From assembly GCF_003668965.1 (NCBI RefSeq), contig NZ_RAWQ01000078.1, forward strand, positions 1 through 39,014: a DNA stretch of 39,014 nucleotides, written 5' to 3'. Below the pieces are notes generated by a model. The model searched no databases, had not been told where the DNA came from, and worked only from the letters and a program-made list of their open reading frames with translations. The stretch comes from Corallococcus sp. AB030. GTDB taxonomy: Bacteria; Myxococcota; Myxococcia; Myxococcales; Myxococcaceae. Positions 458 to 38,856 of the stretch are shown here, piece by piece (position 1 is the first letter of the stretch; each line of letters opens with the position of its first letter). A program made the position numbers and the translations under genes.

Positions 458-1309
458 ATGGCGTCCCCCTCCATTCCCGCCCCCGTCGTCCTTTTGGGGG
501 GCGGCAAGATCGCCGAAGCCCTCATCCTGGGACTGTTGCGGTCCGGCCACGTACGTCCTTCGGACCTTCGCGTCACGGTGCGCCGGCCCGAGCGCGGAGA
601 GGAATTGCGCTCCCGGCACGGCGTGCACGTCCTCGTGGACAACGCGCAGGCGGTGCGGGGCGCGGCCGTAGTCGTGCTGGCGGTGCGACAGGCGCAGCTG
701 CGGGACCTGATGGCGGTCATCTCGCCTGCCTTGGAACCTGGGCAGACCGTGGTGTCGCTCTCCGCGGACGTACGACTCGCGCAGTTGGAAGCGGCGTTGC
801 CCTCCAGCGTCTCTGTCATCCGCGCCCTGCCCCATACGCCCGTGCGCGTGGGAGCAGGCGTGACGCCCCTGTCGGCCGGAACTCGGACGACGGAGGCCGC
901 GAGACAGGCCACCGAGTCCGTCTTCGCGGCGACGGGACGGCCCATGTGGATGACCGAGGAAGCGCTCACGGTCTGCACGGGCGTGTGCGGCACGGGCCCC
1001 GCGTATGTCTTCCGCTTCGTGGAGGCCCTGGCCCTGGCCGCGATGGCGCACGGAATGGACGCGGCGGAGGCGGCGGCACTCGCGAAGGAAACGCTCATTG
1101 GCGCGGCGAAGCTGTTGGCCGAACCCGGCGCCACCACCCCTCGCCTCATCACGGAGATAGCGACCCCGGGAGGCATCACCGAGGCGGGCCTGATGGCGAT
1201 GGACTCCCACGGCCTCCCTCGCGTCGTGGGCGAAGCGGTCTCCGTCGCCATCCAGCGCACCCGGGAGCGCGCGGACGCGAACGCCGCGGCCTACAGCGCG
1301 CCGAAGTGA
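458..1309 (+). CDS. proC: Pyrroline-5-carboxylate reductase
   Basis: N-terminal Rossmann motif VVLLGGGKIAEALILGL and a conserved P5CR C-terminal domain (CTGVCGTGPAY, ITEIATPGGITEAG). The 283-aa length matches the family. Confidence 0.9.
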   Translation: MASPSIPAPVVLLGGGKIAEALILGLLRSGHVRPSDLRVTVRRPERGEELRSRHGVHVLVDNAQAVRGAAVVVLAVRQAQLRDLMAVISPALEPGQTVVSLSADVRLAQLEAALPSSVSVIRALPHTPVRVGAGVTPLSAGTRTTEAARQATESVFAATGRPMWMTEEALTVCTGVCGTGPAYVFRFVEALALAAMAHGMDAAEAAALAKETLIGAAKLLAEPGATTPRLITEIATPGGITEAGLMAMDSHGLPRVVGEAVSVAIQRTRERADANAAAYSAPK

Positions 1310-1974
1310 CGCTTGATCCCCCGCTGGCCTCCAGGCGTGACGATGAGGCCGCGAGAGTCGGGCTGACGTTCCACCCATCCCAATGAGAACACCCGGGCGG
1401 CGAGCGCCGCGCCCAGCGCCCCTGCAAGGTGGTCGCGCCGCTCGCTCCAGTCCAGGCAGCGGTGGGCGAAGTGGCGCCGCTGCTCGCGCACGGGCGCCAG
1501 GTCGATTCCGAAGTCCTGGAACCACGCCTCGCCGCTCGGGGTGAGCGCGAACGCGCGTTTACGAAGGGCGAGATGCCCGGCCCGCAGGAGCGCGTCGGTG
1601 ATGCCCATGCCCAATCTGCCCGCAAGATGGTCGTAGCAGTAGCGCGCGGCACGCAGGGGTTCCGGAGTCACTGACGCACGGGGTCCACGGACCGCCACGG
1701 TCATCAGCGCTTCCACCATCCGCGCCACGGTGGGCGTGGCGATCCGGAACACCTTGTTGCGCCCCTGCCGGGTGGCGCGGACCAGCCGGGCCTGCTCCAG
1801 CCGCTGAAGGTGCGCGGTCGCCGTCGCGGGGCTGACGCCCGTGCCGAACGCGAGTTCCTTCGCGATGAGCGCCCGTCCCTCCATGAGCAGCTCCAGCATC
1901 CGGATCCGCGTGGCGTCCCCCACGGCCGTCGCCAGCGTCGTGAGGTCCGGCCCTGCATTCATCGTTCGTTCCAT
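1291..1974 (-). CDS. ArsR/SmtB-family winged-helix transcriptional regulator with a ~130-aa C-terminal domain of unknown function
   Basis: HTH region RIRMLELLMEGRALIAKELAFGTGVSPATATAHLQRLEQARLV. Start set at the ATG (MERTMNAG) inside the longer track ORF. Divergent from the P450 gene, and its 3' end overlaps the proC 3' end by 19 nt. Confidence 0.75.
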   Translation of the reverse strand: MERTMNAGPDLTTLATAVGDATRIRMLELLMEGRALIAKELAFGTGVSPATATAHLQRLEQARLVRATRQGRNKVFRIATPTVARMVEALMTVAVRGPRASVTPEPLRAARYCYDHLAGRLGMGITDALLRAGHLALRKRAFALTPSGEAWFQDFGIDLAPVREQRRHFAHRCLDWSERRDHLAGALGAALAARVFSLGWVERQPDSRGLIVTPGGQRGIKRHFGAL

Positions 1975-2037
1975 GACGAACCATTTTCTAACACACGGAC
2001 ACGGCAACGGCAGCAGAGTGCCCGGCCACGAGGACCG

Positions 2038-3159
2038 ATGACACCACCCACCGACCCGTATCAGGCCGTCACCCACACCGACCCGTACCCCTACTACGCG
2101 GGGCTTCGCGCCCGGGGAGGACTGCACCGCGTCCCCGGCTTCGGGCCATGGATCGCGGCGGATGCGGCCACCGTCCGCGCGGTGCTCACGAGCGAGCACT
2201 GTCGGGTCCGGCCACTGTCGGAGCCGGTGCCTCCGCATCTGGTGGGCACCGCCGCCGGGGCCCTCTTTGGCCGGCTGGTGCGGATGAACGACGGAGGCTC
2301 CTACCCCGCCGTGAAGCAGACGCTTTCACGCGCATTGCCGGAGGCGCTGTGTGAGGTCGAAGCGGAGAGCCGCCGCTGGGCGGCACGGCTGTTCGCGACG
2401 CCATCACTGTCTCGGCTGCCGGACACCGCCCTCCAGCTTCCCGTGTTCGTGCTGGGGTCGCTGCTGGGCTTCCCGGAAGACACGCTGGAGGCGAGCGTGC
2501 AGGACGTGGATGCCTATGTCCGCTCGGCCGCCGGTCCTCCTGCGGGCAGTGAGGGTGCGGCGAGGCTGAACGAACGCGTGGCGGCCTGCTTCCAGTCCAC
2601 GGCGAGGACCGCGTTCACGACGCGGCTTCTGGAAGGCCATGGCTCGGAGGACCTGCGCATCCCGAACGCCGTGGGCCTGCTCACCCAGGCATATGAAGCG
2701 ACGGCCGGGCTCCTGGGCGCGACGCTGCGGGCCTTCGCTCACGTGCCCGAGTTGCGCGAGCAGCTCTCACATGGCGCGTGCACGATGGACGACGTGGTCC
2801 AGGAAGCGGCTCGACACGATTCGCCGGTCCAGAACACGCGACGCTTCACCCATGCCGCCGCGACCATCGCGGGTCAGGCGCTGGAAGCCGGCGCGACCGT
2901 GGTCGTCGTGCTCGCCGCCGCGAATCGGGATCCACTCGAGAATCCCCGGCCCGACGCCTTCCTGCCAAAGCGCGCGCGGCGCCAGAGCTTCACCTTCGGC
3001 CTGGGCTCGCATGCCTGCCCCGGGCCCCTGCTCGCGACGACGATGGCAAAGGCGGCGGCGGAGCGTGTGCTCGCGAGCGGCCTGGACCTGTCACCGTTGT
3101 CGGGCCCCGTCACCTGGCGTGCTTCCACCAATGCCCGCGTCCTGGGAGGACTGGAATGA
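2038..3159 (+). CDS. Cytochrome P450 monooxygenase
   Basis: Heme-binding loop FTFGLGSHACPGPLLA (FxxGxHxCxG) and ExxR motif EAARHDS. Start chosen at the MTPPTDPY ATG inside the longer track ORF; 374 aa is short for a P450, so the true start may be an upstream GTG. Confidence 0.8.
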   Translation: MTPPTDPYQAVTHTDPYPYYAGLRARGGLHRVPGFGPWIAADAATVRAVLTSEHCRVRPLSEPVPPHLVGTAAGALFGRLVRMNDGGSYPAVKQTLSRALPEALCEVEAESRRWAARLFATPSLSRLPDTALQLPVFVLGSLLGFPEDTLEASVQDVDAYVRSAAGPPAGSEGAARLNERVAACFQSTARTAFTTRLLEGHGSEDLRIPNAVGLLTQAYEATAGLLGATLRAFAHVPELREQLSHGACTMDDVVQEAARHDSPVQNTRRFTHAAATIAGQALEAGATVVVVLAAANRDPLENPRPDAFLPKRARRQSFTFGLGSHACPGPLLATTMAKAAAERVLASGLDLSPLSGPVTWRASTNARVLGGLE

Positions 3160-3500
3160 TTGCTGTCATCTTCGAGGTCTGGACACACGAGTCGCATCGG
3201 CAGCGATACCTGGACCTCGCGGCGGAGCTGCGGCCCCTGCTGGCGGACATCGACGGCTTCATCTCCATCGAGCGGTTCCAGAGCCTCAGCACCCCGGGGA
3301 AGATGCTTTCCCTGTCGTACTGGCGCGACGAGGCGGCGGTGGCGGAGTGGCGGCGACAGGAGGCCCACCGTGAGGCCCAGCGCGAAGGCCGAGGAGGCGT
3401 GTTCAGCGACTACCGCCTGCGGGTGGCGCACGTCGTGAGGGATTACGGCTTGAAGGACCGGGCGGCCGTGCCCGCCGACAGTCGCACCGTGCACGACTGA
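3156..3500 (+). CDS. Antibiotic-biosynthesis-monooxygenase (ABM/ActVA-Orf6-like) family protein, translationally coupled to the P450
   Basis: 114 aa with MIAVIFEVWT...LSYWRDEAAVAEWRRQEAHREAQ, a typical ABM ferredoxin-like fold signature. Its ATG overlaps the P450 stop (ATGA). Confidence 0.75.
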   Translation: MIAVIFEVWTHESHRQRYLDLAAELRPLLADIDGFISIERFQSLSTPGKMLSLSYWRDEAAVAEWRRQEAHREAQREGRGGVFSDYRLRVAHVVRDYGLKDRAAVPADSRTVHD

Positions 3501-3583
3501 CGCGGCCGGCGCACGGCGGCTGTCTTCCCGCCCGTCCCTCCCATGCGGGCCATGACTCCCCCACCTTCTTTGGGGGGTGAACG

Positions 3584-3982
3584 ATGAAGCGAGGCCATTG
3601 GAGAGGTGCCTGGGGGCTGGCTGCCGCGCTGCTCGGGCTTCCGGCGGTGGGGCAGATGGAAGGCCCACCCGAGGGTGCGTCGCAATACTCCTGCTTCGAA
3701 GCGGCGCGCCAGGGCAGCTCGGTGAGCGAGAGCATCGCGGCGCAGCTCTGCCAGGGTGCCCGTTCCGACACCCCGGCACGGTGCTTCCTCCGGGTGCAGG
3801 AGAAAGGCTTCCTCGCCGACCCGCAGGCGCTCCAGCTCTGCCAGTACGCCCAGCCCTCGGATGATCCCGCGGCCTGCTTCTTCAAGGCGCGGACCTCCTC
3901 GTTCCTGGACGAGACACAGCTCCTGGAGCTCTGCCGCCCGCCCATCGCGCAGATGCTGAAGATGTGCCCCTACGGTCCGTGA
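3584..3982 (+). CDS. Small secreted cysteine-rich protein with three internal CF...LC repeats
   Basis: Signal peptide MKRGHWRGAWGLAAALLGLPAVG. Repeated motif C-F-x(n)-L-C (CFEAARQ..AQLCQ, CFLRVQ..LQLCQ, CFFKAR..LELCR). RBS-like GGGGGTGAA precedes the ATG. Confidence 0.6.
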   Translation: MKRGHWRGAWGLAAALLGLPAVGQMEGPPEGASQYSCFEAARQGSSVSESIAAQLCQGARSDTPARCFLRVQEKGFLADPQALQLCQYAQPSDDPAACFFKARTSSFLDETQLLELCRPPIAQMLKMCPYGP

Positions 3983-4000
3983 GGCTTCAGGCCGTGGGGC

Positions 4001-6685
4001 TCACCGGGCGCGGAGGAACGCCTTGACGCTCGGGGACTGGAGCTTCTGGGACTCGATGCACAGCCGGATGGACTCCAGGGCCCGGGTGAGCGCGCGCGGT
4101 CCGCCTTCAATCTTGTCCACGCGGGGCGTCAGGAACGTCTCCACCTGCGCCAGGTGGATGTCATCGCAGAGGCTCCCCGTCTGGCCAATCAGCCGACCCA
4201 GCTCATCCGAACGCAGCCGCTGGGTCAGCGCATCGAAGTGCGTCTGATAGAAGTTCCACGCCAGCGACTGCGACTCCGGCAACATCAACGCCATCCGGAG
4301 GATGCTCTGCGAGTCCCGCACATCGAAGTCCGGCGACACCACGAGCCCCAGCGCCCGCCACAACAGCTCCGGGTTCCGGAAGTAGCCCAGCGACATCAGC
4401 AGCCGGGAACGCTCGGTGCGGTCCTGTTCCTTCCTCGCCGCTTCCAGCAGCGCGTCGAACAGCGCCGCATCGCCGTGCGTCGCTGCTCGGGGCAGCGCGG
4501 CACTGAACGCCTCCGGGTCCACCGACTTCCGGTCCGCCAGCCATGCGCGCACCAGGGGCAGCGCCTCCTTCACCAGCCGAGGGTCATCGCCCAGACCACC
4601 GGCCAGCCGGAGGAACAGGGAGCGTGAATCCTTCACGGAGTCGTCCTCGCCCGGCTTCGGCACCCAGCCCATGGCCCGCGCACGCGCCGAGTAGAGCGAG
4701 GCCACCCACGCGCGGAAGCGCTGGCGCTCCTCGGGCGTGAGCTGCTCCAGACGCACGAGTTCCAGCAGCGAGGCACCGCTCTGCACCACGAGCCGGTTCG
4801 TCGATTTCGCGGAAGCAGGCACCGACTTCAGCGCCTCCCCCAGCGGCAGGTCGCCCCGGCTCACCGCCGCATCCACATCCGCCCAGAGCGCCATCTGCTC
4901 CGCGGGAGTGAAGGCGGCGGCCGGAGTCGCGAGCAGCTTCGTCAACTGCTCGCGGGTGTAACCGCTGCGGTAGTAACCCGTGCCGCCCGCGTTGAGCAGC
5001 ACCCACGCCGGGCACTGCTTCGTGGGCAACGCGACCTCCGCGGACGGCCCCTGCAACATCGAGCACACCCGCGACGACTGCGTGCCCGTGCCCACGCGAA
5101 GACACACGGGCACCTGCCATTCCTGCCGCGAGTCCGCCTTGGAGCCCACGGGCAGGTACCGCTCCTGCGACAGCTTCACGGACGGAGCACCGCCCGCCGG
5201 GCACGACAGCTGCGCGGTGATCCGAGGCGCCCCGCTCCGCTCGATGAACCCGCCGAAGGATTGCGCCACCTCCGGCCCCGCCGCCTGGGACAGGTCCGCG
5301 AGGAAGTCCTCCATCGTCGCGACCTTCCACTCGTGCTTGCGGACATAGCCCCGGAGGAAGTCGCGGAAGCGCTCGGGGCCCATCCAGGCCTCGTACATGG
5401 CGATGACGGACGAGCCCTTGTCATACGTCGTCCCGTTGTCGAACGAGCCCACGATGTCGTCATTGCTCTCCACCGGCTTGCGAACGGGCAGCGCCGACGC
5501 CAGCTCATCCGACGCCAGGGCGGAGCGGGTCGCGGACATGGCGCGCTCCTGCTGGTAGTCCCAGGACGGCTCCAGCCGGTCCACGGTCTGCCGGTCCAAC
5601 CACGCGGTGAAGGACTCGTTCAGCCAGATGTCGTTCCACCAGGAGCAGGTGACGACGTCCCCGAACCAGTAGTGGCCCAGCTCATGGTTGGCGATGACCG
5701 CGTACGACTTGCGGCGGGCCAGCGTCTCCTCACCGGGAGGAATGAGCGTGAGCGGCTGCCCGAGTGCGACGATGCCCGGGTGCTCCATGGTGCCCCAGTA
5801 CCGGGGCACGACCGCCACATCGAGCTTCTCGTACGGATAGGGCTGGTCGAAGAAGTCCTCCAGTCCCTTCACGATGCGAGGCGTGATGCTCGCGGCGTAG
5901 CGCGTCTCCGCGCCCCGGCCCTTGGGGACGATGAAGCGCAGCGGCACGTTCGTGCGTCCCACGGTGCCGGCCTCGACGATGTCGAACGGCCCCACCATGA
6001 AGGCCACGAGGTAGCTGGGCATCGGCTTGCTCTCCGCGAAGGTGACGCGCTCCAGTCCGTCCGCCAGCGGCTCGCGCGACACGACGGGATGGTTGGCCAG
6101 CGCCACGTGTCCGGCCTTCACGGTGAAGCGCAGACGCCACGGCACCTTGAAGGTCGGCTCGTCGAAGCACGGGAAGGCGCGGCGCGCGTCGATGGGTTCG
6201 AAGAACGTGTAGAGGTAGGGCTCACCGCCCTCCTCCACCCCGTAGATGCCCTGGCTGCGCTCGCGGTCCACCTTGCCGGTGAAGTCGAGCAGGAGCTGGG
6301 CCTTGCCCACCGGCAGCTCCTCCGGCAGCAGCAATCCCAGACGTCCTTCGGGCGCGGTGACAGGCTTCGCATCGAACGTGCGGCCCGCCACGGTGACACG
6401 AGCACGCGTCACTTCCACGTCCTGCGCATGCAGCCACACCTGGCGCACGGGCTCGCGGACCTCCACGTCGATGGTGACGCTGCCCGGGTACCTGTCCTCC
6501 TAGGGCACGAGCTTCAGATCCAGCGCGTAGTGCACGGGCCGAACGGTGTCCGGCAGCCGCAGCGCGGGGGGCAGGGCCTCCGGCCACGAAACGGAGGGCG
6601 GCGCGGATGCAGTCGGCGCGGCCTCCGGCGCGTGGGCGCAGCGGACGGTCAACACCACCAGGGCGAGGAGTGGGAGCAGTCGCAT
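4001..6685 (-). pseudogene. pepN: Aminopeptidase N (M1 family zinc metallopeptidase) interrupted by a single in-frame TAG at 6500..6502. The N-terminal 61 codons (6503..6685) carry the signal peptide, and the open body runs 4001..6466
   Basis: The body carries the gluzincin motif HELGHYWFGD...WLNESFTAW and the upstream GAMEN-like region. The short upstream ORF in the same frame encodes MRLLPLLALVVLTVRCAHA plus the conserved M1 N-terminal motif VRPVHYALDLKLVP. The single stop sits between LKLVP and EDRYPGSVTIDVEV, the conserved P..F.G.V.I motif. Confidence 0.7.
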
Positions 6686-6846
6686 GGGGCGCAGCGTAGA
6701 CCATGCGCGGGTCGCGCACCGCGCCTACGTCTCGGCTCGCACCCACAGCATTCTTGAAATGTCTCCAATCCGTGAAGCAGTGATTTCAACCCCGCGAGCC
6801 GCTACGGTCCTGATCCCCCCGCATCACCCCCTAGCCGAGGATAAAC

Positions 6847-7161
6847 ATGTTTCGTCGCAGCAGCGTTCTTCCCTCCCTCTTCGTGTCCCTGCTTTTCGTC
6901 GTGGGCTTCGCGTCGTCGGCCAGCGCTGACACCTACCAGACCTATGTGACGCCCACGGCCAATGGCTATCAGATTGGCACGTACCTCCCCAACCAGCCCA
7001 CCGGGAACTTCAGCAGCGCCGCCGACACCGCCCGCCGCTTCTGTCAGGACCAGGGCCACAGCGGCGCGCAAAGCTTCACCACCGCCATCCGTGGCTCCGC
7101 CTTCTCGTTCATCGTGGGTACGAATGGCGTGGGCAACTGGCTGAGCTATCCCCTCATTTGA
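6847..7161 (+). CDS. Secreted repeat-module protein, 5' portion: signal peptide plus module 1 (NGYQIGTYLPNQPTGNFSSAADTARRFCQDQGH...GTNGVGNW). Truncated by the insertion at 7141
   Basis: Signal peptide MFRRSSVLPSLFVSLLFVVGFASSASA. SD GAGGA lies 6 nt before the ATG. The terminal codons LSYPLI* come from the inserted element. Confidence 0.65.
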   Translation: MFRRSSVLPSLFVSLLFVVGFASSASADTYQTYVTPTANGYQIGTYLPNQPTGNFSSAADTARRFCQDQGHSGAQSFTTAIRGSAFSFIVGTNGVGNWLSYPLI

Positions 7162-7247
7162 AGATTCCCCTCGGAGAATGCATGAGCAGCCGAGCGAGCA
7201 AGCTCAGAGGGGAAATCGAAAATGAGGGGATGCTTCAGGGCAACTGG
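7132..7247. mobile_element. MITE-like 98-bp insertion (7141..7238) with ~19-bp imperfect terminal inverted repeats (CTGAGCTATCCCCTCATTT / AAATGAGGGGATGCTTCAG), flanked by 9-bp direct repeats GGCAACTGG (7132..7140 and 7239..7247)
   Basis: Direct reading. The element has lower GC than its flanks. Deleting 7141..7247 (107 nt) joins 6847..7140 in frame to 7248..7577, giving one signal-peptide plus two-module ORF. Confidence 0.6.
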
Positions 7248-9519: not shown

Positions 9520-11115
9520 ATGACGCCCACGGAACGGACCATTGCCCGCCTTCCCGCCCACCTGCGCCGCTACGTGGTGGGCCAGGACTACGCGGCGTAC
9601 ACGCCCAGGGATCAGGCGGTGTGGCGGCACATCCTGGGGCAGCTGCGCGAGCACCTGAGCGACAAGGCGCACCCCGTCTACCTGGAGGGCCTGGAGGCCA
9701 CGGGCATTGGCGCGGAGGCCATCCCCAGCCTGGACGAGATGAACGAGAAGCTGTCCCAGCTGGGCTGGTCCTGCGTGGCGGTGCGCGGCTTCATCCCGCC
9801 GGCCGTCTTCACGGAGCTGCAGGCGCTGGGCGTGCTGGCCATCGCGGCGGACATCCGCACGCACGAGCACATCCAGTACACGCCCGCGCCGGACATCGTC
9901 CATGAGAGCGCGGGCCACGCGCCCATCATCGCGAACGCGCGCTATGCCCAGTACCTCAAGGCCGTGGGGCTGGTGGGCTTCAAGGCCATCGCCAGCGTGG
10001 AGGACCAGGCCGTCTTCGAGGCCATCCGCAACCTCTCCGTGGTGAAGGAGGACCCCACCGCGACGGAGGAGGAGATCGCCCACGCCCAGGCCCGCCTGGA
10101 GGCCGCCAACGCCAGCCACCGCTACATCAGCGAGAGCACCCGCGCGAGCCGCCTGTACTGGTGGACCGCGGAGTACGGACTGATTGGCGACCTGAAGCAC
10201 CCGCGCATCTACGGCGCGGGCCTGCTGTCCAGCATCGGCGAGGCCCGGCACTGCCTGACGTCCGCCGTGCACAAGCTGCCCCTGGGCGTGGCGTGCGCGG
10301 ACACGGACTACGACATCACCCGCATGCAGCCGCAGCTCTTCGTGGCGCGCGACTTCGAGCACCTCTTCGAAGTCCTGTCCGAGTTCGAGTCCACGCTCGC
10401 GTGGAAGCGCGGCGGAGACCTCGGCCTGAACGAGGCGCTGCGCGCGCGCACGGTCAACCACCTGGTGCTCGCGGACGGCCGCGAGGTGACGGGCAAGGTG
10501 GTGGAGCTGCTGCCCGCCGCGAAGGACGTGGCCCCGGGCCTGTCCACCGCGCTGGCCCGGTTGGAGGGCCCCATCCTCACGTCCATGAACGGGCACGCCC
10601 TGGACAAGCCGTTCAGCGGCGCGGCGCTGGTCGCCTTTGGCCAGGGCACCCTGCCGGAGCGCGGGAACTTCACGCTCACGCTCGACAGCGGGCTGGTGCT
10701 GGAGGGCTTCGCGGTGGGCGGCGGAGAAGTGATTGCCCTGCGCGGCACGCTGGCCGGACAAGAGCTGACGCTGCCGTCCATGGCGCGCCTGTACCTGACG
10801 GAGCGGCTGCCGTCCGTGGCGGGCGGCCCCGCCGACCCGGGCACGTGGGACGAGTGGTTCGGGGAGATGGACGCCTTCACCGCGGGCGACGGCGAGGCCC
10901 AGGCGCGCGAGCGCAAGGCGCAGGCCCTGCCCCCGTCGCTGGCCGCCCTCTACACGGAGGTGCGCCGCATCCGCGAGACGGGACAGCTGGCCGCCGAGCG
11001 GCTGGAGCAGATCGCCCGCGCGTCCACGGACTTCCCCACCGACTGGCTCCTGCGCGCCGAGGTCGCGGAGCTGCGCGGCGAGGTGCCCGCGAGGCGCGAG
11101 GCGGCGCAGGCGTAG
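9520..11115 (+). CDS. phhA: Biopterin-dependent aromatic amino acid hydroxylase (phenylalanine 4-monooxygenase-like), long form with a ~270-aa C-terminal extension of unknown function
   Basis: Iron-binding motif YTPAPDIVHESAGHAPII (xPDxxHExxGHxP) and a second His/Glu region. SD AAGGAG lies 11 nt before the ATG. An 8-bp inverted repeat TTCAGGAG/CTCCTGAA overlaps the RBS. Confidence 0.8.
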   Translation: MTPTERTIARLPAHLRRYVVGQDYAAYTPRDQAVWRHILGQLREHLSDKAHPVYLEGLEATGIGAEAIPSLDEMNEKLSQLGWSCVAVRGFIPPAVFTELQALGVLAIAADIRTHEHIQYTPAPDIVHESAGHAPIIANARYAQYLKAVGLVGFKAIASVEDQAVFEAIRNLSVVKEDPTATEEEIAHAQARLEAANASHRYISESTRASRLYWWTAEYGLIGDLKHPRIYGAGLLSSIGEARHCLTSAVHKLPLGVACADTDYDITRMQPQLFVARDFEHLFEVLSEFESTLAWKRGGDLGLNEALRARTVNHLVLADGREVTGKVVELLPAAKDVAPGLSTALARLEGPILTSMNGHALDKPFSGAALVAFGQGTLPERGNFTLTLDSGLVLEGFAVGGGEVIALRGTLAGQELTLPSMARLYLTERLPSVAGGPADPGTWDEWFGEMDAFTAGDGEAQARERKAQALPPSLAALYTEVRRIRETGQLAAERLEQIARASTDFPTDWLLRAEVAELRGEVPARREAAQA

Positions 11116-11218: not shown

Positions 11219-12937
11219 CTACTTGTTGATGCGCACCATGGCCACGTCGTAGTGGCGCTCCGTCACGTAGCCGTTCGCGGCCTTGCCGGGGCGGTACATG
11301 TTCCCGGTCTTGTCATCCACGTAGAAGCGGTTGTTCGGGTTCGTGTCCTTGCCCGTGCTGGCGTTCTTCGTGCCCGGGTCGTGGAACGTGTAGTAGGTGC
11401 GGCCCTTGTCGTCGACGCCGCGGCCCGTGATGGTCACGAAGTGGTCCGTGAGGCCGTCCGCGTTGTAGCTCGCGTCCTTGTGGCTCACGCCCACGACCAC
11501 CGGCTTGCCGGCCTCCAGCTGCTTGTCGATGTAGCTGCGGCCCTCGGCGGCCTTCTTCGAGTCCACGTTGAGCGCGCCGACGCCGTTCTCGCTCTTGCCC
11601 ACCTGGATGCGGCGGTCCGGGCCCAGCACGGTCGCGCCGGAGTCACGCGCCATCGCCGTCGCGGCCTTGAAGCACGCCGTGTCGCTCGCGGTGTAGCCGT
11701 GGCCGTTCTCGAACTGGCTGTAGTACGGCACCTTCACGTGCACCGCCGGCTTGTCCTTGGACGGGGCCACCTGCTCCGTGTTCGCCGGGGCCGCCTCCGT
11801 GGTGGGCTTGGAGGTGTTCGTGCCCTGCGTCGTGGGCTTGCCTTCCGTGGTGCCCGGCTTCGAGCCGTTGTTCACGGACGGGGGAACCACGCCCGTGTTG
11901 GTGTTGGCCGGCTTGGTCGTGGTGCCCGACTTCTCCTGCTTCAGCATCGCGAGGGCGTCCTTCGCCTCCGACTTGAAGCGGTTGGCCACGCCCTTCTGCA
12001 CGTCCTTGGAGCTGCCGGAGAAGTGCACCAGGGTGCCGCTGGCGTTGGTGCGGCCGCGCTCGGCGTAGATGTCCTTGATGAGCTGCTCGTCGCTCACCTT
12101 CGCGGGGTCGCGCCCGTTGAGCGCCTTCTTGAAGATGTCGTCCGCCTTGCCCGGGCCGTGCTGCACGGAGGTGGACCAGGCCACGTCCCGCAGCGCCGCG
12201 GAGCGCTTGTCCAGGTCGATGCCCGTCGCCTTCTTGATGTTGGCGGCGCCCGCGTCGTAGTGCGTGGTCTTGATGTAGTCGTGCTGCGCCTTGTCGAAGC
12301 CCTTCGGGTCCTTCGCGGCCAGCTGCTTCCACGCGGCGGAGAACTCCGCGGTGCCCGGCTTGCTGCCCGACAGCGCCTTGTGGAACTCCGGGTTCGTCTT
12401 CTTCAGCGAGTTGACGAACGACTGCGCGGACCCGTTCGCGGAGGCGAACTGGTAGGAGCCGTAGGACACGCCGCCCTTGTCACCCTTGCCCGTGGACACG
12501 GTGCCGGGGCCGCGCGCCTCGTACTTGCGGCTCAGCCCGCCCAGCTCCCCGTTGGTCGCGCTGCTGGAGTTCGTGTTCGCGGCGGGCGTGGTCGCCTTCG
12601 CGCCGTCCGTGGACTGCGTGAAGCTGTCGCCCGACGTCTTCGTCCCCGCGCTCGACTTGTTGGTGCCCTTCGTGTCGAAACCGTCCTGCACCTTCAGCGT
12701 CTGGCCGGCCAGGATCTTGTTCGGATCCTTGATGTTGTTCGCCTTGGCCAGCGCGTCAACGGTCGTGTTGTAGCGCTTCGCGAGGCCGGAAAGCGTGTCG
12801 CCCGAATTGACGCGGATGTTGGAGACGGTCACGGAGAAGACCCCTCTATGTCTGGCCGCGACCAAAGGCGCCGCGGACATGCTTGGATTGCCCGGATTAT
12901 CGAAAGGCAATGCGATCAGTTTCGCATTCCCAGTCAC
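11219..12937 (-). CDS. LysM-domain protein with a central putative lysozyme-like/peptidoglycan-active domain and a C-terminal papain-like cysteine peptidase (Peptidase_C39-like) domain. No recognisable signal peptide
   Basis: LysM: [50 protein letters not shown]-terminal domain: [28 protein letters not shown]...DHFVTITG...FHDPG (Cys/His/Asp order of C39-like peptidases). Linkers are Lys/Thr/Asn/Ser-rich. Start is uncertain: GTG at 12937 or ATG at 12880, neither with a good SD. Confidence 0.65.
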
Positions 12938-13025: not shown

Positions 13026-14060
13026 ATGTCCAGGATCCAACCGGAATTCAAAAATTTTGCATTGCTGTTTGCCATTTGCGTCACGAGCGCGGTCCCGGAC
13101 GCCTCGGCTCAGGGGTCCGAGGGACTCACGGGGGTCTATTCGAACAAGAGCGGGACGCTCGCCATCGTCGAGGGCAGCAACGAGACGCTCGTGCACTTCG
13201 CGGGCTCGTTCCCGCAGGGCAGCAGCGCGGGCACCTGCGATTGCGCCCTGGTCGTCCAGAAGAAGACAGCCACGAATTGGTCACTTCATCAGGCGGGTGA
13301 GGAAGACGCCTGGACGCTGCGCGTCAATCCCAAGCAATTCGTCCTGGAGTCGGGTCCGTCACCGTCCTGTTGCGGCGCCGGCTATTCAGGCAAGGACACG
13401 TTCGCCCGGAGCACCTCCAAGCCGCTGAGCATCTGCAAGGTGAAGGTGTCCAAGGCGGTCTTCCACGCGTCTGACGCGGCCAACACGCCGCGCAAGGCGT
13501 TCGTGGTGTCCGGGGACGCGGTGGAGGCCTACGTCGACCCGGTGGAGCCGGACTTCCTCGCCGCGCGCTTCCAGGGGCCCCAGAAGGCCACGGCGGGGCT
13601 GCTCAAGCGCGAGGACCTGGACTGCGCGTCGGAGTCAGCGCCCACGGCCGCGAAGGCTCCCGTGGCCGCGGACAAGCTCCAGCCGTTCGCGGGGACGTGG
13701 GTGGAGCTGACGCGTCAGGGCAAGGGCTTCGTGGTGCTCAAGCCCTGCTCGGCCGCGACGCGCAGCTTCACCGTCAAGCCCGCGACGGGCGAGGTGGAGG
13801 TGCAGCTGGGCCAGGAGGCCACGACGATGAAGGTGACGTCCGTGGAGGCCGGCAAGGGCGCCGGGGCCTGGGTGCTGGGGCTCACGGCCGCGGACGGCAA
13901 GCCGGAGGCGCTCCAGTGGAAGACGGCCGACGCCGCGAAGGGCACCGTGACCGTGAGCAGCCCGGACCTCTTCTCCCAGAGCCACGACTACGTGCGCCAG
14001 GAGAAGAAGTCCGCCTTCCCGTCCAAGCAGGAGACGGGGTGCGACGAGTTCGAGCGCTAA
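13026..14060 (+). CDS. Secreted hypothetical protein (signal peptide, several Cys pairs)
   Basis: Signal peptide MSRIQPEFKNFALLFAICVTSAVPDASAQG with SD AGGAGGA upstream. Divergent from the LysM-peptidase gene across an AT-rich 88-bp spacer. Confidence 0.6.
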   Translation: MSRIQPEFKNFALLFAICVTSAVPDASAQGSEGLTGVYSNKSGTLAIVEGSNETLVHFAGSFPQGSSAGTCDCALVVQKKTATNWSLHQAGEEDAWTLRVNPKQFVLESGPSPSCCGAGYSGKDTFARSTSKPLSICKVKVSKAVFHASDAANTPRKAFVVSGDAVEAYVDPVEPDFLAARFQGPQKATAGLLKREDLDCASESAPTAAKAPVAADKLQPFAGTWVELTRQGKGFVVLKPCSAATRSFTVKPATGEVEVQLGQEATTMKVTSVEAGKGAGAWVLGLTAADGKPEALQWKTADAAKGTVTVSSPDLFSQSHDYVRQEKKSAFPSKQETGCDEFER

Positions 14061-36012: not shown

Positions 36013-36191
36013 GGCGGAAGGGCGCTCATCATGGAGCCCGGATGACGCGCCGGGCAAGGCGCCCCCCTGGGACACCGGGCGAGCGGCCCCGCTTCATTCA
36101 CCAGTGAAAACCGTCATGCAGGCCAAGCCTGGAATTGCCGTGACACGGGCTAGGGTTCCGGCCATCGGTTGGAAGGCCCAGGAGGCTGGCG

Positions 36192-37160
36192 ATGGTCAAC
36201 GTGAGGCAGGTCGCGACGCGGCTGAAGAGTGCGTTCCTGGCGGACCCGGAGCGCTTCTATACGAACGAGACAGGAGCCTGGGTGGCGGGGATGCCGGCGC
36301 CGAGCGACATCCGGGTGACAACGGGCCGGGAGCCCTTCTGGATCAACCTGGGCTACTGGAAGCACGTGGAGAAGGTGGACGACTCCAACGTGGAGCGCGT
36401 GGGGGAGCTGTTCCGGTCCGCCCAGGCGGAGATGGCGCGCCTGTTGGCGAGGACGGCGAAGCTGGGGCCCGGGGATGCCGTCTTGGACTGCGGCTTCGGT
36501 TACGCGGACCAGGACCTGCTGTGGGCGGAGGAGTTCAAGCCCGCGAGCATCGTCGGGGTGAACATCACGCCGAACCAGGTGAAGGTGGGCCGGGAGCGCG
36601 TGAAGCTGACGGGGTTGGAGGACGTGGTCCGGCTGGAGGTGGGGAGCGCGACGGCGCTGCCTGGGCCGGAGGGAGCATTCGACGTGGTGTTCGCGCTGGA
36701 GTCCGCGATGCACTTCCGGATGCGGCAGGACTTCCTGCGCGAGGCCTTCCGGGTGCTGAAGCCGGGAGGCCGGCTGGTGATGGCGGACATGGCGCAGAAG
36801 ACGGACCGTGAGGCTGGAGCCGGACTCCGAGCACGGCTGCGCTACCGCTACTGGCGGGGGCTGATTGCCTTCCCGGAAGAGAACGTCTGGTCGACGGAGC
36901 GCTACCAGTCGGAGCTGCGGCGGGCGGGGTTCCAGGACGTGAAGGTGGAGTCCATCGCGGAGGATGTGTACCCGGCGGTGAACACGGCGCTGGTGGCGCT
37001 GCGGGGCATAACGCAGCTGGAGCGCAATCCGGGGAGCACGTCGCTGCACCAGGTGCGCGCGGACGTGCACAAGGCGATGCGGATGACACCGGAGCAGCTC
37101 CAGTGGCCCGCGCTGTTCAACTGCGACGAGTACGCCGTGGTGTCCGCGCGCAAGCCGTGA
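36192..37160 (+). CDS. Class I SAM-dependent methyltransferase
   Basis: Motif I VLDCGFGYADQ, acidic loop, LKPGGRLVMAD. SD AGGAGG 6 nt upstream of the ATG. Confidence 0.75.
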   Translation: MVNVRQVATRLKSAFLADPERFYTNETGAWVAGMPAPSDIRVTTGREPFWINLGYWKHVEKVDDSNVERVGELFRSAQAEMARLLARTAKLGPGDAVLDCGFGYADQDLLWAEEFKPASIVGVNITPNQVKVGRERVKLTGLEDVVRLEVGSATALPGPEGAFDVVFALESAMHFRMRQDFLREAFRVLKPGGRLVMADMAQKTDREAGAGLRARLRYRYWRGLIAFPEENVWSTERYQSELRRAGFQDVKVESIAEDVYPAVNTALVALRGITQLERNPGSTSLHQVRADVHKAMRMTPEQLQWPALFNCDEYAVVSARKP

Positions 37161-37202
37161 CCGTGGTTGACGGACTGGGGCGGAGCGGCGGTAATCGGAA
37201 GC

Positions 37203-37301
37203 GGTAGGGCCTCCGGACCTGGTGGCCGGCCCGGTCTTCAAAACCGGTGAGGGGCTGCGAGAGCAGTCCCTGGCGAGTTCGATTCCCGTGCCCTACCGCC
37301 A
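37203..37301 (+). tRNA. selC: tRNA-Sec (selenocysteine), anticodon UCA, CCA encoded
   Basis: 99 nt. 8-bp acceptor stem GGTAGGGC/GCCCTACC. Discriminator G then CCA. Anticodon arm CCGGT-CTTCAAA-ACCGG (U33, UCA, A37). Long variable arm with an 8-bp stem (GGGGCTGC-GAGA-GCAGTCCC). T-arm GCGAG-TTCGATT-CCCGT. This is the 8/5 architecture typical of bacterial tRNA-Sec. Confidence 0.8.
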
Positions 37302-37444
37302 ATACTTCCGAGGGGTTACGCCCCACCTGCCCTGTGGATACCGTACCCTGCTGCGTCCAGGCGCGTCCAGACCAGTCCACTCGACTGCGTTACCGCTGCG
37401 TTACTGCGCAGCAGGCAACGGCGAGGACTCAGCAACGGGCTCCC

Positions 37445-38359
37445 TTAGGGGAACATCACGTTGCCAAACACGACAGTACGCGACCCATCTTCCTCCCAGA
37501 GCTTGAGTGAGAAGGGCCCTCGGGTTGTTTCTGGTGAGGCCTCGGCTTCCACAACAACCCGACCGACGTTTCCTCCTGGAATTGGCATTCGCTGCCATAC
37601 GCGGATCACCTTCAACTCCACGCCAGCCTTGCCTTTGAGCGTTGCGCCCTTCGCGAGCCATGGCTGAGCCCCGGCCTTCACGTCCAACTTGATGTCCACC
37701 GCTACGCCCGTAGTGGAGCGATAGCTCGTGATGTAAGAGGCCGTCAGGTCACTCCCAGAGACTTGGGAGAACTCAAGGGTCACGACTTGCCCGGCCACAC
37801 CACGCTCGTCCATTCCTCCGGTGGAGATCAGGCCCGCCAGCCCTCCCGGAGCATCGTGCTCGGCCATCAGTCTTGCGTTCTCATTTTGGCAGCGCAGCAA
37901 TTCCGCATGCGCCTCGCGGGCTTCCTGCTGGTACGTCTCAATCGTCCGCTTTCCGCGATAGACCTCAATGAGAGACTCGGCCTTTGCCGGATGGATCCGC
38001 AAAAGGAAGAATGCACTCAAGGGGGCTGCGCCATCCCTGAATCGCACGACCAGACGAAACCGCTCGCCTGGAGCTACACGCGACGAAGGCACCAGTCGGA
38101 TTGTGGCTTGCCCCACATCCACCAGTGCAAAGCGATCTCGCCCCTCCAACTCGACACTGTCGCGCATCAGGTCGGAATCGAAGAAGAGAGCCGTCGAGAG
38201 TCCAGAGCTGATCGCGATCTCGGGGGTGACTTGAACATCGTCCGGCGACAATTCGATGCGTCGTGCGCCCGGCACCGACGCTGAACCCTCTGACTGAGCG
38301 ACGGCCGTTTCGGCCACGAACAGCAGGCCCAGGAGCACGACGAAAGAAGAAGATGACAC
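37445..38359 (-). CDS. Secreted hypothetical protein (signal peptide; central coiled-coil region), possibly a Myxococcales paralogous-family member
   Basis: Signal peptide MSSSSFVVLLGLLFVAETAVAQS. No recognisable catalytic motifs. Confidence 0.5.
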   Translation of the reverse strand: MSSSSFVVLLGLLFVAETAVAQSEGSASVPGARRIELSPDDVQVTPEIAISSGLSTALFFDSDLMRDSVELEGRDRFALVDVGQATIRLVPSSRVAPGERFRLVVRFRDGAAPLSAFFLLRIHPAKAESLIEVYRGKRTIETYQQEAREAHAELLRCQNENARLMAEHDAPGGLAGLISTGGMDERGVAGQVVTLEFSQVSGSDLTASYITSYRSTTGVAVDIKLDVKAGAQPWLAKGATLKGKAGVELKVIRVWQRMPIPGGNVGRVVVEAEASPETTRGPFSLKLWEEDGSRTVVFGNVMFP

Positions 38360-38385
38360 TCGGCGATTACTCCCAGGTGGTGCTG

Positions 38386-38856
38386 TTACTCAAACTCGCT
38401 CACCGCCCTCACGTATTCGCTCGTGAAGATACGGCCATTGGAAGGTGAGTCGTTTCCGGGCTCGCGTGCCATTCCTCGTTCCCCGTCTTTCACGTCGTAG
38501 ACCTCCAGGCAGACAGGAAAACTGTCGCCCTTTGGCGTAGTCGCCGAGGTGAGTCGCCCGTAAACGCGGTCTCGCACGATTAGCCGACCAGACAGAACTG
38601 TCCCGTGCGGCATTTCCTCCCAATCGCCGTACAAGAACACCTGGGCAGGGCCTTCCCGAACAGAAATGAATTGCGGGCGGTCACGGGTGAAAACGGCTTC
38701 GTGCCTGTCTCCAATGTCGATGCCCAGCTTCGCCATGGCCTTCACAGCACCCTTTGGGCACGGCTCCGGAGGAGGTGCCGGACGCACTTGCGGCCCTGGG
38801 CACGCGAGCGCCGTGCATGCCGCCGCCGTGCCGACAGCACGGGCCATGACGCTCAT
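38386..38856 (-). CDS. Hypothetical lipoprotein
   Basis: MSVMARAVGTAAACTALAC lipobox-like signal from the ATG at 38856. An alternative GTG at 38919 is preceded by AGGAGG. No known domains recognised. Confidence 0.45.
   Translation of the reverse strand: MSVMARAVGTAAACTALACPGPQVRPAPPPEPCPKGAVKAMAKLGIDIGDRHEAVFTRDRPQFISVREGPAQVFLYGDWEEMPHGTVLSGRLIVRDRVYGRLTSATTPKGDSFPVCLEVYDVKDGERGMAREPGNDSPSNGRIFTSEYVRAVSEFE

Follow-up and report, generated by a model that had tools for sequence, protein, structure and literature searches.

The 39,014-nt stretch of the Corallococcus sp. AB030 genome analysed here (the window) raises the question of whether a tRNA-like sequence near its 3′ end is a working gene for the selenocysteine (Sec) tRNA (tRNA-Sec, selC) and whether the low-GC DNA that follows it is a genomic island integrated at that gene. 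A preliminary description of the window had proposed both the gene and the idea that selC, as a classic integration hotspot, might be occupied. We consider it very likely that the gene is a functional selC, that in this genus it serves as the attachment site of a family of integrase-bearing elements, that the site is empty in AB030 and that a diverged native cassette follows it. All positions are those of the window unless given for another locus, and tRNA positions are numbered 1–99 from 37203.

ARAGORN returned a single tRNA in the window, a tRNA-SeC with anticodon tca (at tRNA position 36), whose ends coincide exactly with those of the gene first proposed (Table 1). The Rfam tRNA-Sec model (RF01852) matched 37203..37297 with 70.5 bits (gathering threshold 47, E value 1.3e-12), so the covariance score, which the preliminary description had singled out as a check, lies well above the threshold, and the folding energy of the gene is −52.5 kcal/mol (z = −3.1 versus shuffled sequences). 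The acceptor stem comprises 8 bp, all paired (1–8 with 88–95). The D stem has six pairs (11–14 and 16–17 with 22–27), a bulged A15 and the 4-nt loop UGGU, and the anticodon stem has five pairs and carries the 7-nt loop CUUCAAA, with U before UCA and A after it. The extra arm is built of nine pairs (48–56 with 61–69, one of them G.U) and a GAGA loop. In the T stem (71–75 with 83–87), four of the five positions are paired, and A74.C84 (52:62 in standard numbering, by count) is the sole non-pair of the fold. The 3′ end consists of the discriminator G96 and an encoded CCA at 97–99. The acceptor stem, the anticodon with its flanking U33 and A37, the discriminator and the CCA are all as previously described, as is the presence of a long extra arm; only its length, given as 8 bp, had to be corrected. 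Four mechanical open reading frames (ORFs) overlap the gene (36150..37241, −; 37117..37380, −; 37222..37506, +; 37247..37510, +), in keeping with the earlier remark that spurious ORFs had been placed across it. Every structural test that was run was passed, and this is a genuine, ordinary bacterial selC of the 8/5 type; it is an already known kind of feature that was skipped by a protein-only gene track.

A genome scan with the methyltransferase encoded upstream of selC yielded 19 myxobacterial loci. The tRNA-Sec gene directly follows the methyltransferase gene in eight of these and in five further close relatives; together with L025 (Corallococcus sp. BB11-1), which has a different upstream gene context and does not share the methyltransferase neighbourhood, they make up 14 comparison selC loci. 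The selC sequence is identical to that of the window in 11 of the 14 other Corallococcus loci, while the neighbouring protein is merely 84–95 % identical. The 33 pairs of the fold are 97 % paired, with four double-compensatory pairs among three distinct sequences: two in the anticodon stem of L004, and two in the extra arm of L006 (Corallococcus llansteffanensis CA051B), the latter accompanied by one C-G to U.G change. All nine substitutions across the three counted sequences lie in stems and preserve pairing. A tenth, C84T in the T stem of L023 (ENA assembly ERZ23579034), turns the otherwise invariant A74.C84 into an A-U pair; in this locus (selC at 4287..4385, −), the changed base belongs to the segment that an integrated element contributes to the tRNA (see below). 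selC is real and under constraint.

Upstream of the gene, two hexamers form a candidate promoter, TTGACG-N17-GGTAAT, that ends 7 nt before the 5′ end of selC. Both hexamers are invariant in nine aligned Corallococcus loci in which the surrounding bases vary, and the motif is kept in L025 too, despite its different upstream genes. On the other side, the first 23 nt past the CCA are exact in the window, in its close relatives L020, L021 and L022 (99.4, 99.2 and 95.3 % identical to the window, respectively) and in L026 (strain CA054B), and carry one substitution in L001, with divergence setting in after them. Inside this flank lies a small GC hairpin (GGGGT-TAC-GCCCC, 37312–37324), which may have a role in termination or processing, the scanner having called no terminator there.

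The claim that this organism makes selenoproteins is supported by published data for the lineage: a survey that defined the Sec trait by SelD, SelA and SelB lists three selenoprotein genes for Corallococcus coralloides DSM 2259 and two or three for several Myxococcus species (PMC5029168, Supplementary Table S2), and a 2018 study placed AB030, a draft genome, in the same species group as DSM 2259 (PMC6306037). selC would probably be transcribed from its own conserved upstream promoter. From what is known of the family and from genome surveys, the tRNA would be charged with serine; SelA would then turn the product into selenocysteinyl-tRNA with selenophosphate made by SelD, and SelB would deliver it to UGA codons accompanied by a Sec insertion sequence (SECIS) hairpin in a few selenoprotein mRNAs. 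The presence of selC identifies the strain as one that can decode UGA as Sec, and such decoding affects the annotation of in-frame TGA codons in formate dehydrogenase-type genes.

Across nine species, conservation ends exactly at the CCA of selC, and hardly any two species share the DNA beyond, which is often of low GC. In L006, L017 (Corallococcus interemptor AB047A), L023 and L025, a tyrosine integrase gene (PF00589) begins ~110 nt past an intact selC. Up to 37301 exactly, L023 matches the window at 98.8 % identity, and beyond it the two are unrelated; therefore, strains that are very closely related can have the site occupied or empty, and the occurrence of both states at this level of identity lends indirect support to the predicted excision and integration activity. 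The elements of L006, L017, L023 and L024 (Corallococcus sp. CA047B) share an integrase module (94–95 % DNA identity) and a second module consisting of HTH_17 and DUF3854/DUF5906 primase-like genes (87–91 % identity). The cargo genes between the two modules differ, and several are defence-like (DUF4365 nuclease domain, T5orf172 domain, GTPase); a 388-aa kinase follows the elements. The element integrase (P0001) is 95 % identical to UniProt Q5ZPC0 from Archangium disciforme, a member of another myxobacterial genus, which suggests that this tRNA-Sec element family moves between genera.

Two loci delimit the attachment sequence. In L025, tRNA positions 34–97 recur after the intact selC (9790–9888) as a perfect direct repeat of 64 nt (13755–13818), and the two copies bracket a ~3.9-kb decayed element with a frameshifted integrase. 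In L024, an element-borne copy of tRNA positions 34–99 (9824..9889) lies directly before an integrase of the same family; ARAGORN and Rfam detected no intact tRNA-Sec beside this element, only the 3′ 66 nt being present. In the same locus, the housekeeping genes pyrD and folD lie upstream, and kinase, Xre and kinase genes follow in the orientation opposite to that of the window arrangement. Neither tRNA fragment is called by ARAGORN or Rfam, and because both begin at position 34, the identity block opens with the first anticodon-loop base. The selC variants of the element-bearing strains L006 and L023 all fall within positions 34–99, and the L006 variant equals the L024 element-borne copy, suggesting that the element supplies the 3′ two-thirds of the tRNA on integration. 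The attachment sequence would be the tRNA from the first anticodon-loop base to its 3′ end; since it matches the tRNA there, integration in the relatives would rebuild an intact tRNA from the element copy and displace the host 3′ fragment to the far end. A second, smaller possibility is that elements supplying variant tRNA 3′ parts may change Sec decoding, the L023 copy being one that repairs the A.C mismatch. From these comparisons, we conclude that selC is the predicted integration site of a tyrosine-integrase element family in Corallococcus.

The site appears to be empty in AB030. We searched the window and all loci with the last 14 to 45 nt of the tRNA, allowing mismatches, and with the whole tRNA by blastn-short; outside L024, L025 and one match in L002, this returned only chance-level matches of at most 15 nt. 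The L002 match (22 nt, 91 %, tRNA positions 57–78, E value 0.1) was considered as a tRNA fragment and set aside as probable chance. Neither an integrase nor a displaced tRNA fragment was found in the 1.7 kb of the window after selC, in 4.3 kb in L020, L021 and L022, in 12.5 kb in L026 (where a DDE transposase is present) or in 9.8 kb in L001, and because both are lacking from the window and its near-identical relatives, we read the site as unoccupied. The hotspot idea thus holds for the genus (L006, L017, L023 and L025) and, within the sequence covered, not for this genome. Likewise, the direct repeat of the tRNA 3′ end suggested in the preliminary description exists in L025 and not in the window, and it is a block of 64–66 nt that starts in the anticodon loop, not a short copy of the 3′ end. 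The same description placed such a repeat beyond the window; the window is most likely the whole AB030 contig, so nothing further exists in this assembly. The flank remains unstable nonetheless: CA054B, which is otherwise 97.5–100 % identical to the window here, carries an insertion sequence (IS) element (L026 11097..12320, −; DDE_5 transposase of 407 aa; ~1.48 kb) 147 nt after selC, where the DUF2381 gene that follows comes to its end (Table 1).

What, then, is the low-GC DNA after selC? Its genes had been described as uncharacterized, secreted proteins or lipoproteins. This fits the first insofar as its N-terminus is signal-peptide-like; however, the families of both are known, and the second is the end of a Ser/Thr kinase. 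Both genes run toward selC, in the order kinase then DUF2381. The part of the kinase in the window aligns to residues 408–613 of a 613-aa Pkinase protein in L001, and the full gene is present in L020, L021 and L026. Past selC, GC falls from 0.69 to ~0.60, and GC at third codon positions (GC3) falls from 0.93 to 0.68–0.70 over the two genes. Before 37300, the window is 95–100 % identical to L022 and 87–100 % identical to L001 per 60-nt bin, and L022 does not differ from L020 (100 % identity) over the methyltransferase and selC. Across the next stretch, to ~38800, identity to both is 37–78 % per bin, after which it returns to 88–98 % in the portion of the kinase gene held by the window; further upstream in that gene, L022 and L020 are 87–99 % identical. 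At the protein level, the DUF2381 protein, which is 100 % identical to P0064 of Corallococcus sp. AB030, shows 61–62 % identity to its same-position counterparts in L022 and L001, and the kinase comparison with L022 gives 73 % identity after residue 400 and 92.5 % before it. There are two allele types, one in the window, L020, L021 and L026 and the other in L022 and L001, each comprising the DUF2381 gene and the last ~110 kinase residues, and GC3 is low in both.

This profile points to a deeply diverged ~1.4-kb allelic cassette. Because its far edge lies inside an otherwise conserved kinase gene, we interpret it as an allelic replacement, unlike an inserted island, and because both alleles are low in GC3, the low GC is a property of the kinase/DUF2381 pair and gives no sign of recent arrival. 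The DNA after the empty site would be native flank, with the diverged cassette as its first ~1.4 kb, and the identity profile is consistent with exchange of the cassette between strains by homologous recombination, in which the selC side and the conserved kinase domain would provide the flanking homology.

Clusters of Ser/Thr kinase and DUF2381 genes occur in Myxococcus xanthus and have been proposed to act in phase variation there (cited in bioRxiv 10.64898/2026.08.28.747804). A literature search on TIGR02268 found nothing, and a search that was not wide found no description of a kinase/DUF2381 allelic cassette. PADLOC holds no model matching DUF2381; its matches to the kinase (PD-T4-6 and mad6) covered the generic kinase domain alone, so they were not read as pointing to a role in defence. 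One speculative and rather doubtful idea is that the cassette encodes a co-evolving ligand/sensor pair, the DUF2381 protein and the extracytoplasmic tip of the kinase, kept as distinct alleles by diversifying or balancing selection. If this were true, it is what would be expected of a switch locus for strain recognition, phage sensing or phase variation, its alleles being swapped between strains via recombination anchored in the invariant selC and the conserved kinase domain. The hypervariable cassette could help to explain the role of the large, uncharacterized DUF2381 family of myxobacteria.

The cassette might instead be a separate, paralogous kinase/DUF2381 locus set beside selC in some strains by rearrangement or gene conversion. 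Corallococcus genomes encode many DUF2381 paralogues, whose 55–69 % identity is the same distance as that between the two alleles, and the kinase gene is where the contig ends, as a repeated family would lead one to expect. However, the two types agree in position, orientation, gene length (304 aa each) and the sequence on either side, and the switch points are sharp and fall in homologous sequence, so that we rate this origin as unlikely, if worth bearing in mind. Were a paralogue the donor in a gene conversion, the outcome at this locus would again be allelic replacement, so that this reading overlaps with the explanation that we favour.

Another reading is that the genes after selC are the start of a genomic island integrated in it, with the integrase and repeat lying further downstream. 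The abrupt drop in GC and GC3 right after the gene and the variation of gene content in nearly every species would fit such an island, as would the IS element of CA054B and the VapE-like, Mrr and PD-(D/E)XK genes (GC 0.48–0.54) that this strain carries 6–12 kb downstream of selC; because the CA054B flank holds this IS and low-GC genes of mobile or defence type, an old, large island keeps some likelihood. Against it, neither the window nor its close relatives show an integrase or a piece of the tRNA in the 1.7 to 12.5 kb covered, and the two alleles have the 23 nt past the CCA in common, while the junctions of elements coincide with the CCA itself. Moreover, the divergence ends inside the kinase gene, the remainder of which is conserved, as fits allelic replacement, and low GC3 is found in both alleles. 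We therefore regard an island here as improbable. Finally, a non-working, tRNA-like remnant such as a displaced attachment-site fragment, for which the non-canonical A74.C84 pair could be cited, deserves almost no credence given the full length of the gene, the presence of all five helices, a covariance score that clears the threshold by a wide margin, the identity of selC across species, the compensatory changes in L004 and L006, the conserved promoter-like motif and the different appearance of the true fragments in L024 and L025, which begin only at position 34.

Several points nevertheless weigh against our preferred reading of a functional, unoccupied selC followed by a native cassette. 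The low-GC mobile and defence-type genes of CA054B are one of them, and the reading of the site as empty draws on no more than 12.5 kb of sequence past selC in relatives, beyond which a very large island, or a decayed one whose tRNA fragment lies far off, may extend. Only one element, the decayed one of L025, shows a flanking direct repeat, and no intact element could be followed to its far end, as the sequences of L006, L017 and L023 stop before it. The arrangement in L024 could represent a secondary-site insertion or an inversion or rearrangement. As for the gene itself, the T-stem mismatch is the same in all loci but L023, and the promoter/terminator scanner called nothing around selC, the second hexamer of the upstream motif breaking its A-at-position-2 rule; because of this, the motif is listed only as a candidate promoter, on the basis of its conservation. 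No selA, selB, selD or formate dehydrogenase genes lie inside the window, and in a homologue search with Anaeromyxobacter dehalogenans SelA (PMC1794560 supplement), the best 120 matches were all Anaeromyxobacter-like and uninformative for Corallococcus.

Table 1. Features at and around selC in the window
Feature	Position	Strand	Basis
Class I S-adenosylmethionine (SAM)-dependent methyltransferase, conserved upstream neighbour of selC	36192..37160	+	Pfam Methyltransf_11/31/25
Candidate promoter: TTGACG (37167-37172), 17-nt spacer, GGTAAT (37190-37195)	37167..37195	+	Conservation; inferred
tRNA-Sec (selC), anticodon UCA, bacterial 8/5 fold, CCA encoded	37203..37301	+	ARAGORN, Rfam RF01852, conservation
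tRNA positions 34-99, putative attachment block of the Corallococcus tyrosine-integrase element family; unoccupied here	37236..37301	+	L024, L025, variants
3′ flank of 23 nt common to both cassette alleles	37302..37324	+	Alignment
Predicted hypervariable allelic cassette, low GC (~0.60), low GC3 (~0.68-0.70)	37325..38740	.	GC profile, identity profile
DUF2381/TIGR02268 protein, 304 aa, signal-peptide-like N-terminus	37445..38359	-	Pfam PF09544 2e-39; NCBIfam TIGR02268 279 bits vs 76
Membrane Ser/Thr kinase (~615 aa), C-terminal ~208 residues, cut by window/contig end	38386..39014	-	Open frame to edge

The methyltransferase upstream of selC is 95 % identical to that of C. coralloides KYC2213. 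Its top NCBIfam match was to a ‘double selenoprotein’ family, which we rejected, since 65 bits against a cut-off of 460 reflect generic methyltransferase-domain similarity. Exact-sequence look-ups with the methyltransferase, the DUF2381 protein, P0064 and an 820-aa DUF3857 protein gave no match, and the one with GroEL led to close relatives. Elsewhere in the window, a homologue (758 aa) of the Major Vault Protein of eukaryotes is encoded at 16712..18988 (−), with matches to Pfam MVP_shoulder (9e-45) and to the Vault, Vault_2, Vault_3 and Vault_4 repeats. A valyl-tRNA synthetase (20580..24074, −) carries a Lys/Ala/Pro-rich C-terminal tail that matches histone-H1-like HC2 and extensin-like profiles, and a 572-aa protein (11219..12937, −) combines a LysM domain with a C-terminal (peptidoglycan-degrading) domain like that of VgrG3 of the type VI secretion system (T6SS). 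An imperfect palindrome of ~100 nt (7141..7238; 41-nt arms, 73 % complementary) recurs inside the elements of L025 (12554–12651, 82 %) and L017 (15556–15653) and looks like a small dispersed repeat.

The DNA after tRNA-Sec in relatives holds further genes of note. In L005 (Corallococcus sp. CA053C), a cyclic-nucleotide-binding and TIR protein is encoded in low-GC DNA ~1.7 kb after tRNA-Sec (11285..12193, +) and matches PycTIR, a Pycsar effector, from end to end (PADLOC: 9e-101 for PycTIR, 1e-111 for a TIR effector model). Directly after tRNA-Sec, L018 (Corallococcus exercitus AB043A) encodes a 2101-aa protein with eCIS_core and ubiquitin-hydrolase (UCH) domains (698..7003, +), and another eCIS_core protein is encoded in L004 (14307..16100, −). 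The two C. exercitus strains, L003 and L018, have wholly different DNA after tRNA-Sec.

Set beside bacterial selC (E. coli, RF01852), the AB030 gene is alike in its UCA anticodon, its 8-bp acceptor and 5-bp T stems forming a 13-bp coaxial helix, its G discriminator, its 6-bp D stem with a 4-nt loop and its long extra arm. It differs in the A.C mismatch of the T stem, the bulged A in the D stem and the presence of only five clear anticodon-stem pairs, deviations that are too ordinary to question its membership of the tRNA-Sec family.

selC-linked genomic islands are classic in enterobacteria. The elements of the Corallococcus relatives resemble tRNA-gene islands in having an integrase beside a regenerated tRNA and a displaced tRNA fragment at the far end; however, their host is a myxobacterium, and their 64–66-nt identity block has its start in the anticodon loop rather than at the very 3′ end. 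In the general mechanism of such islands, the element supplies the 3′ part of the tRNA on integration (the Islander principle, PMC4383910). The window holds the target alone, unoccupied, although its DNA after selC is like an island in that its composition differs from that of the genome and its content varies between strains.

P4-like satellites are characterized by an integrase, an excisionase-like helix-turn-helix (HTH) protein, primase-helicase modules and a variable cargo slot. The elements of L006, L017, L023 and L024 are reminiscent of these in their modules and variable cargo, as compared by domain content only, and no capsid-hijacking or helper-phage genes were seen in the selC elements of relatives. 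The gene pair after selC, for its part, is like the kinase/DUF2381 clusters of M. xanthus (TIGR02268 paralogous family) in its order, kinase then DUF2381, and differs from them in forming a sharply bounded, diverged allelic block between near-identical strains. Taken as a whole, the comparison defines selC as a putative recombination target in Corallococcus, with an attachment block at tRNA positions 34–99, and yields a small family of integrase elements with defence-like genes in the cargo slot.

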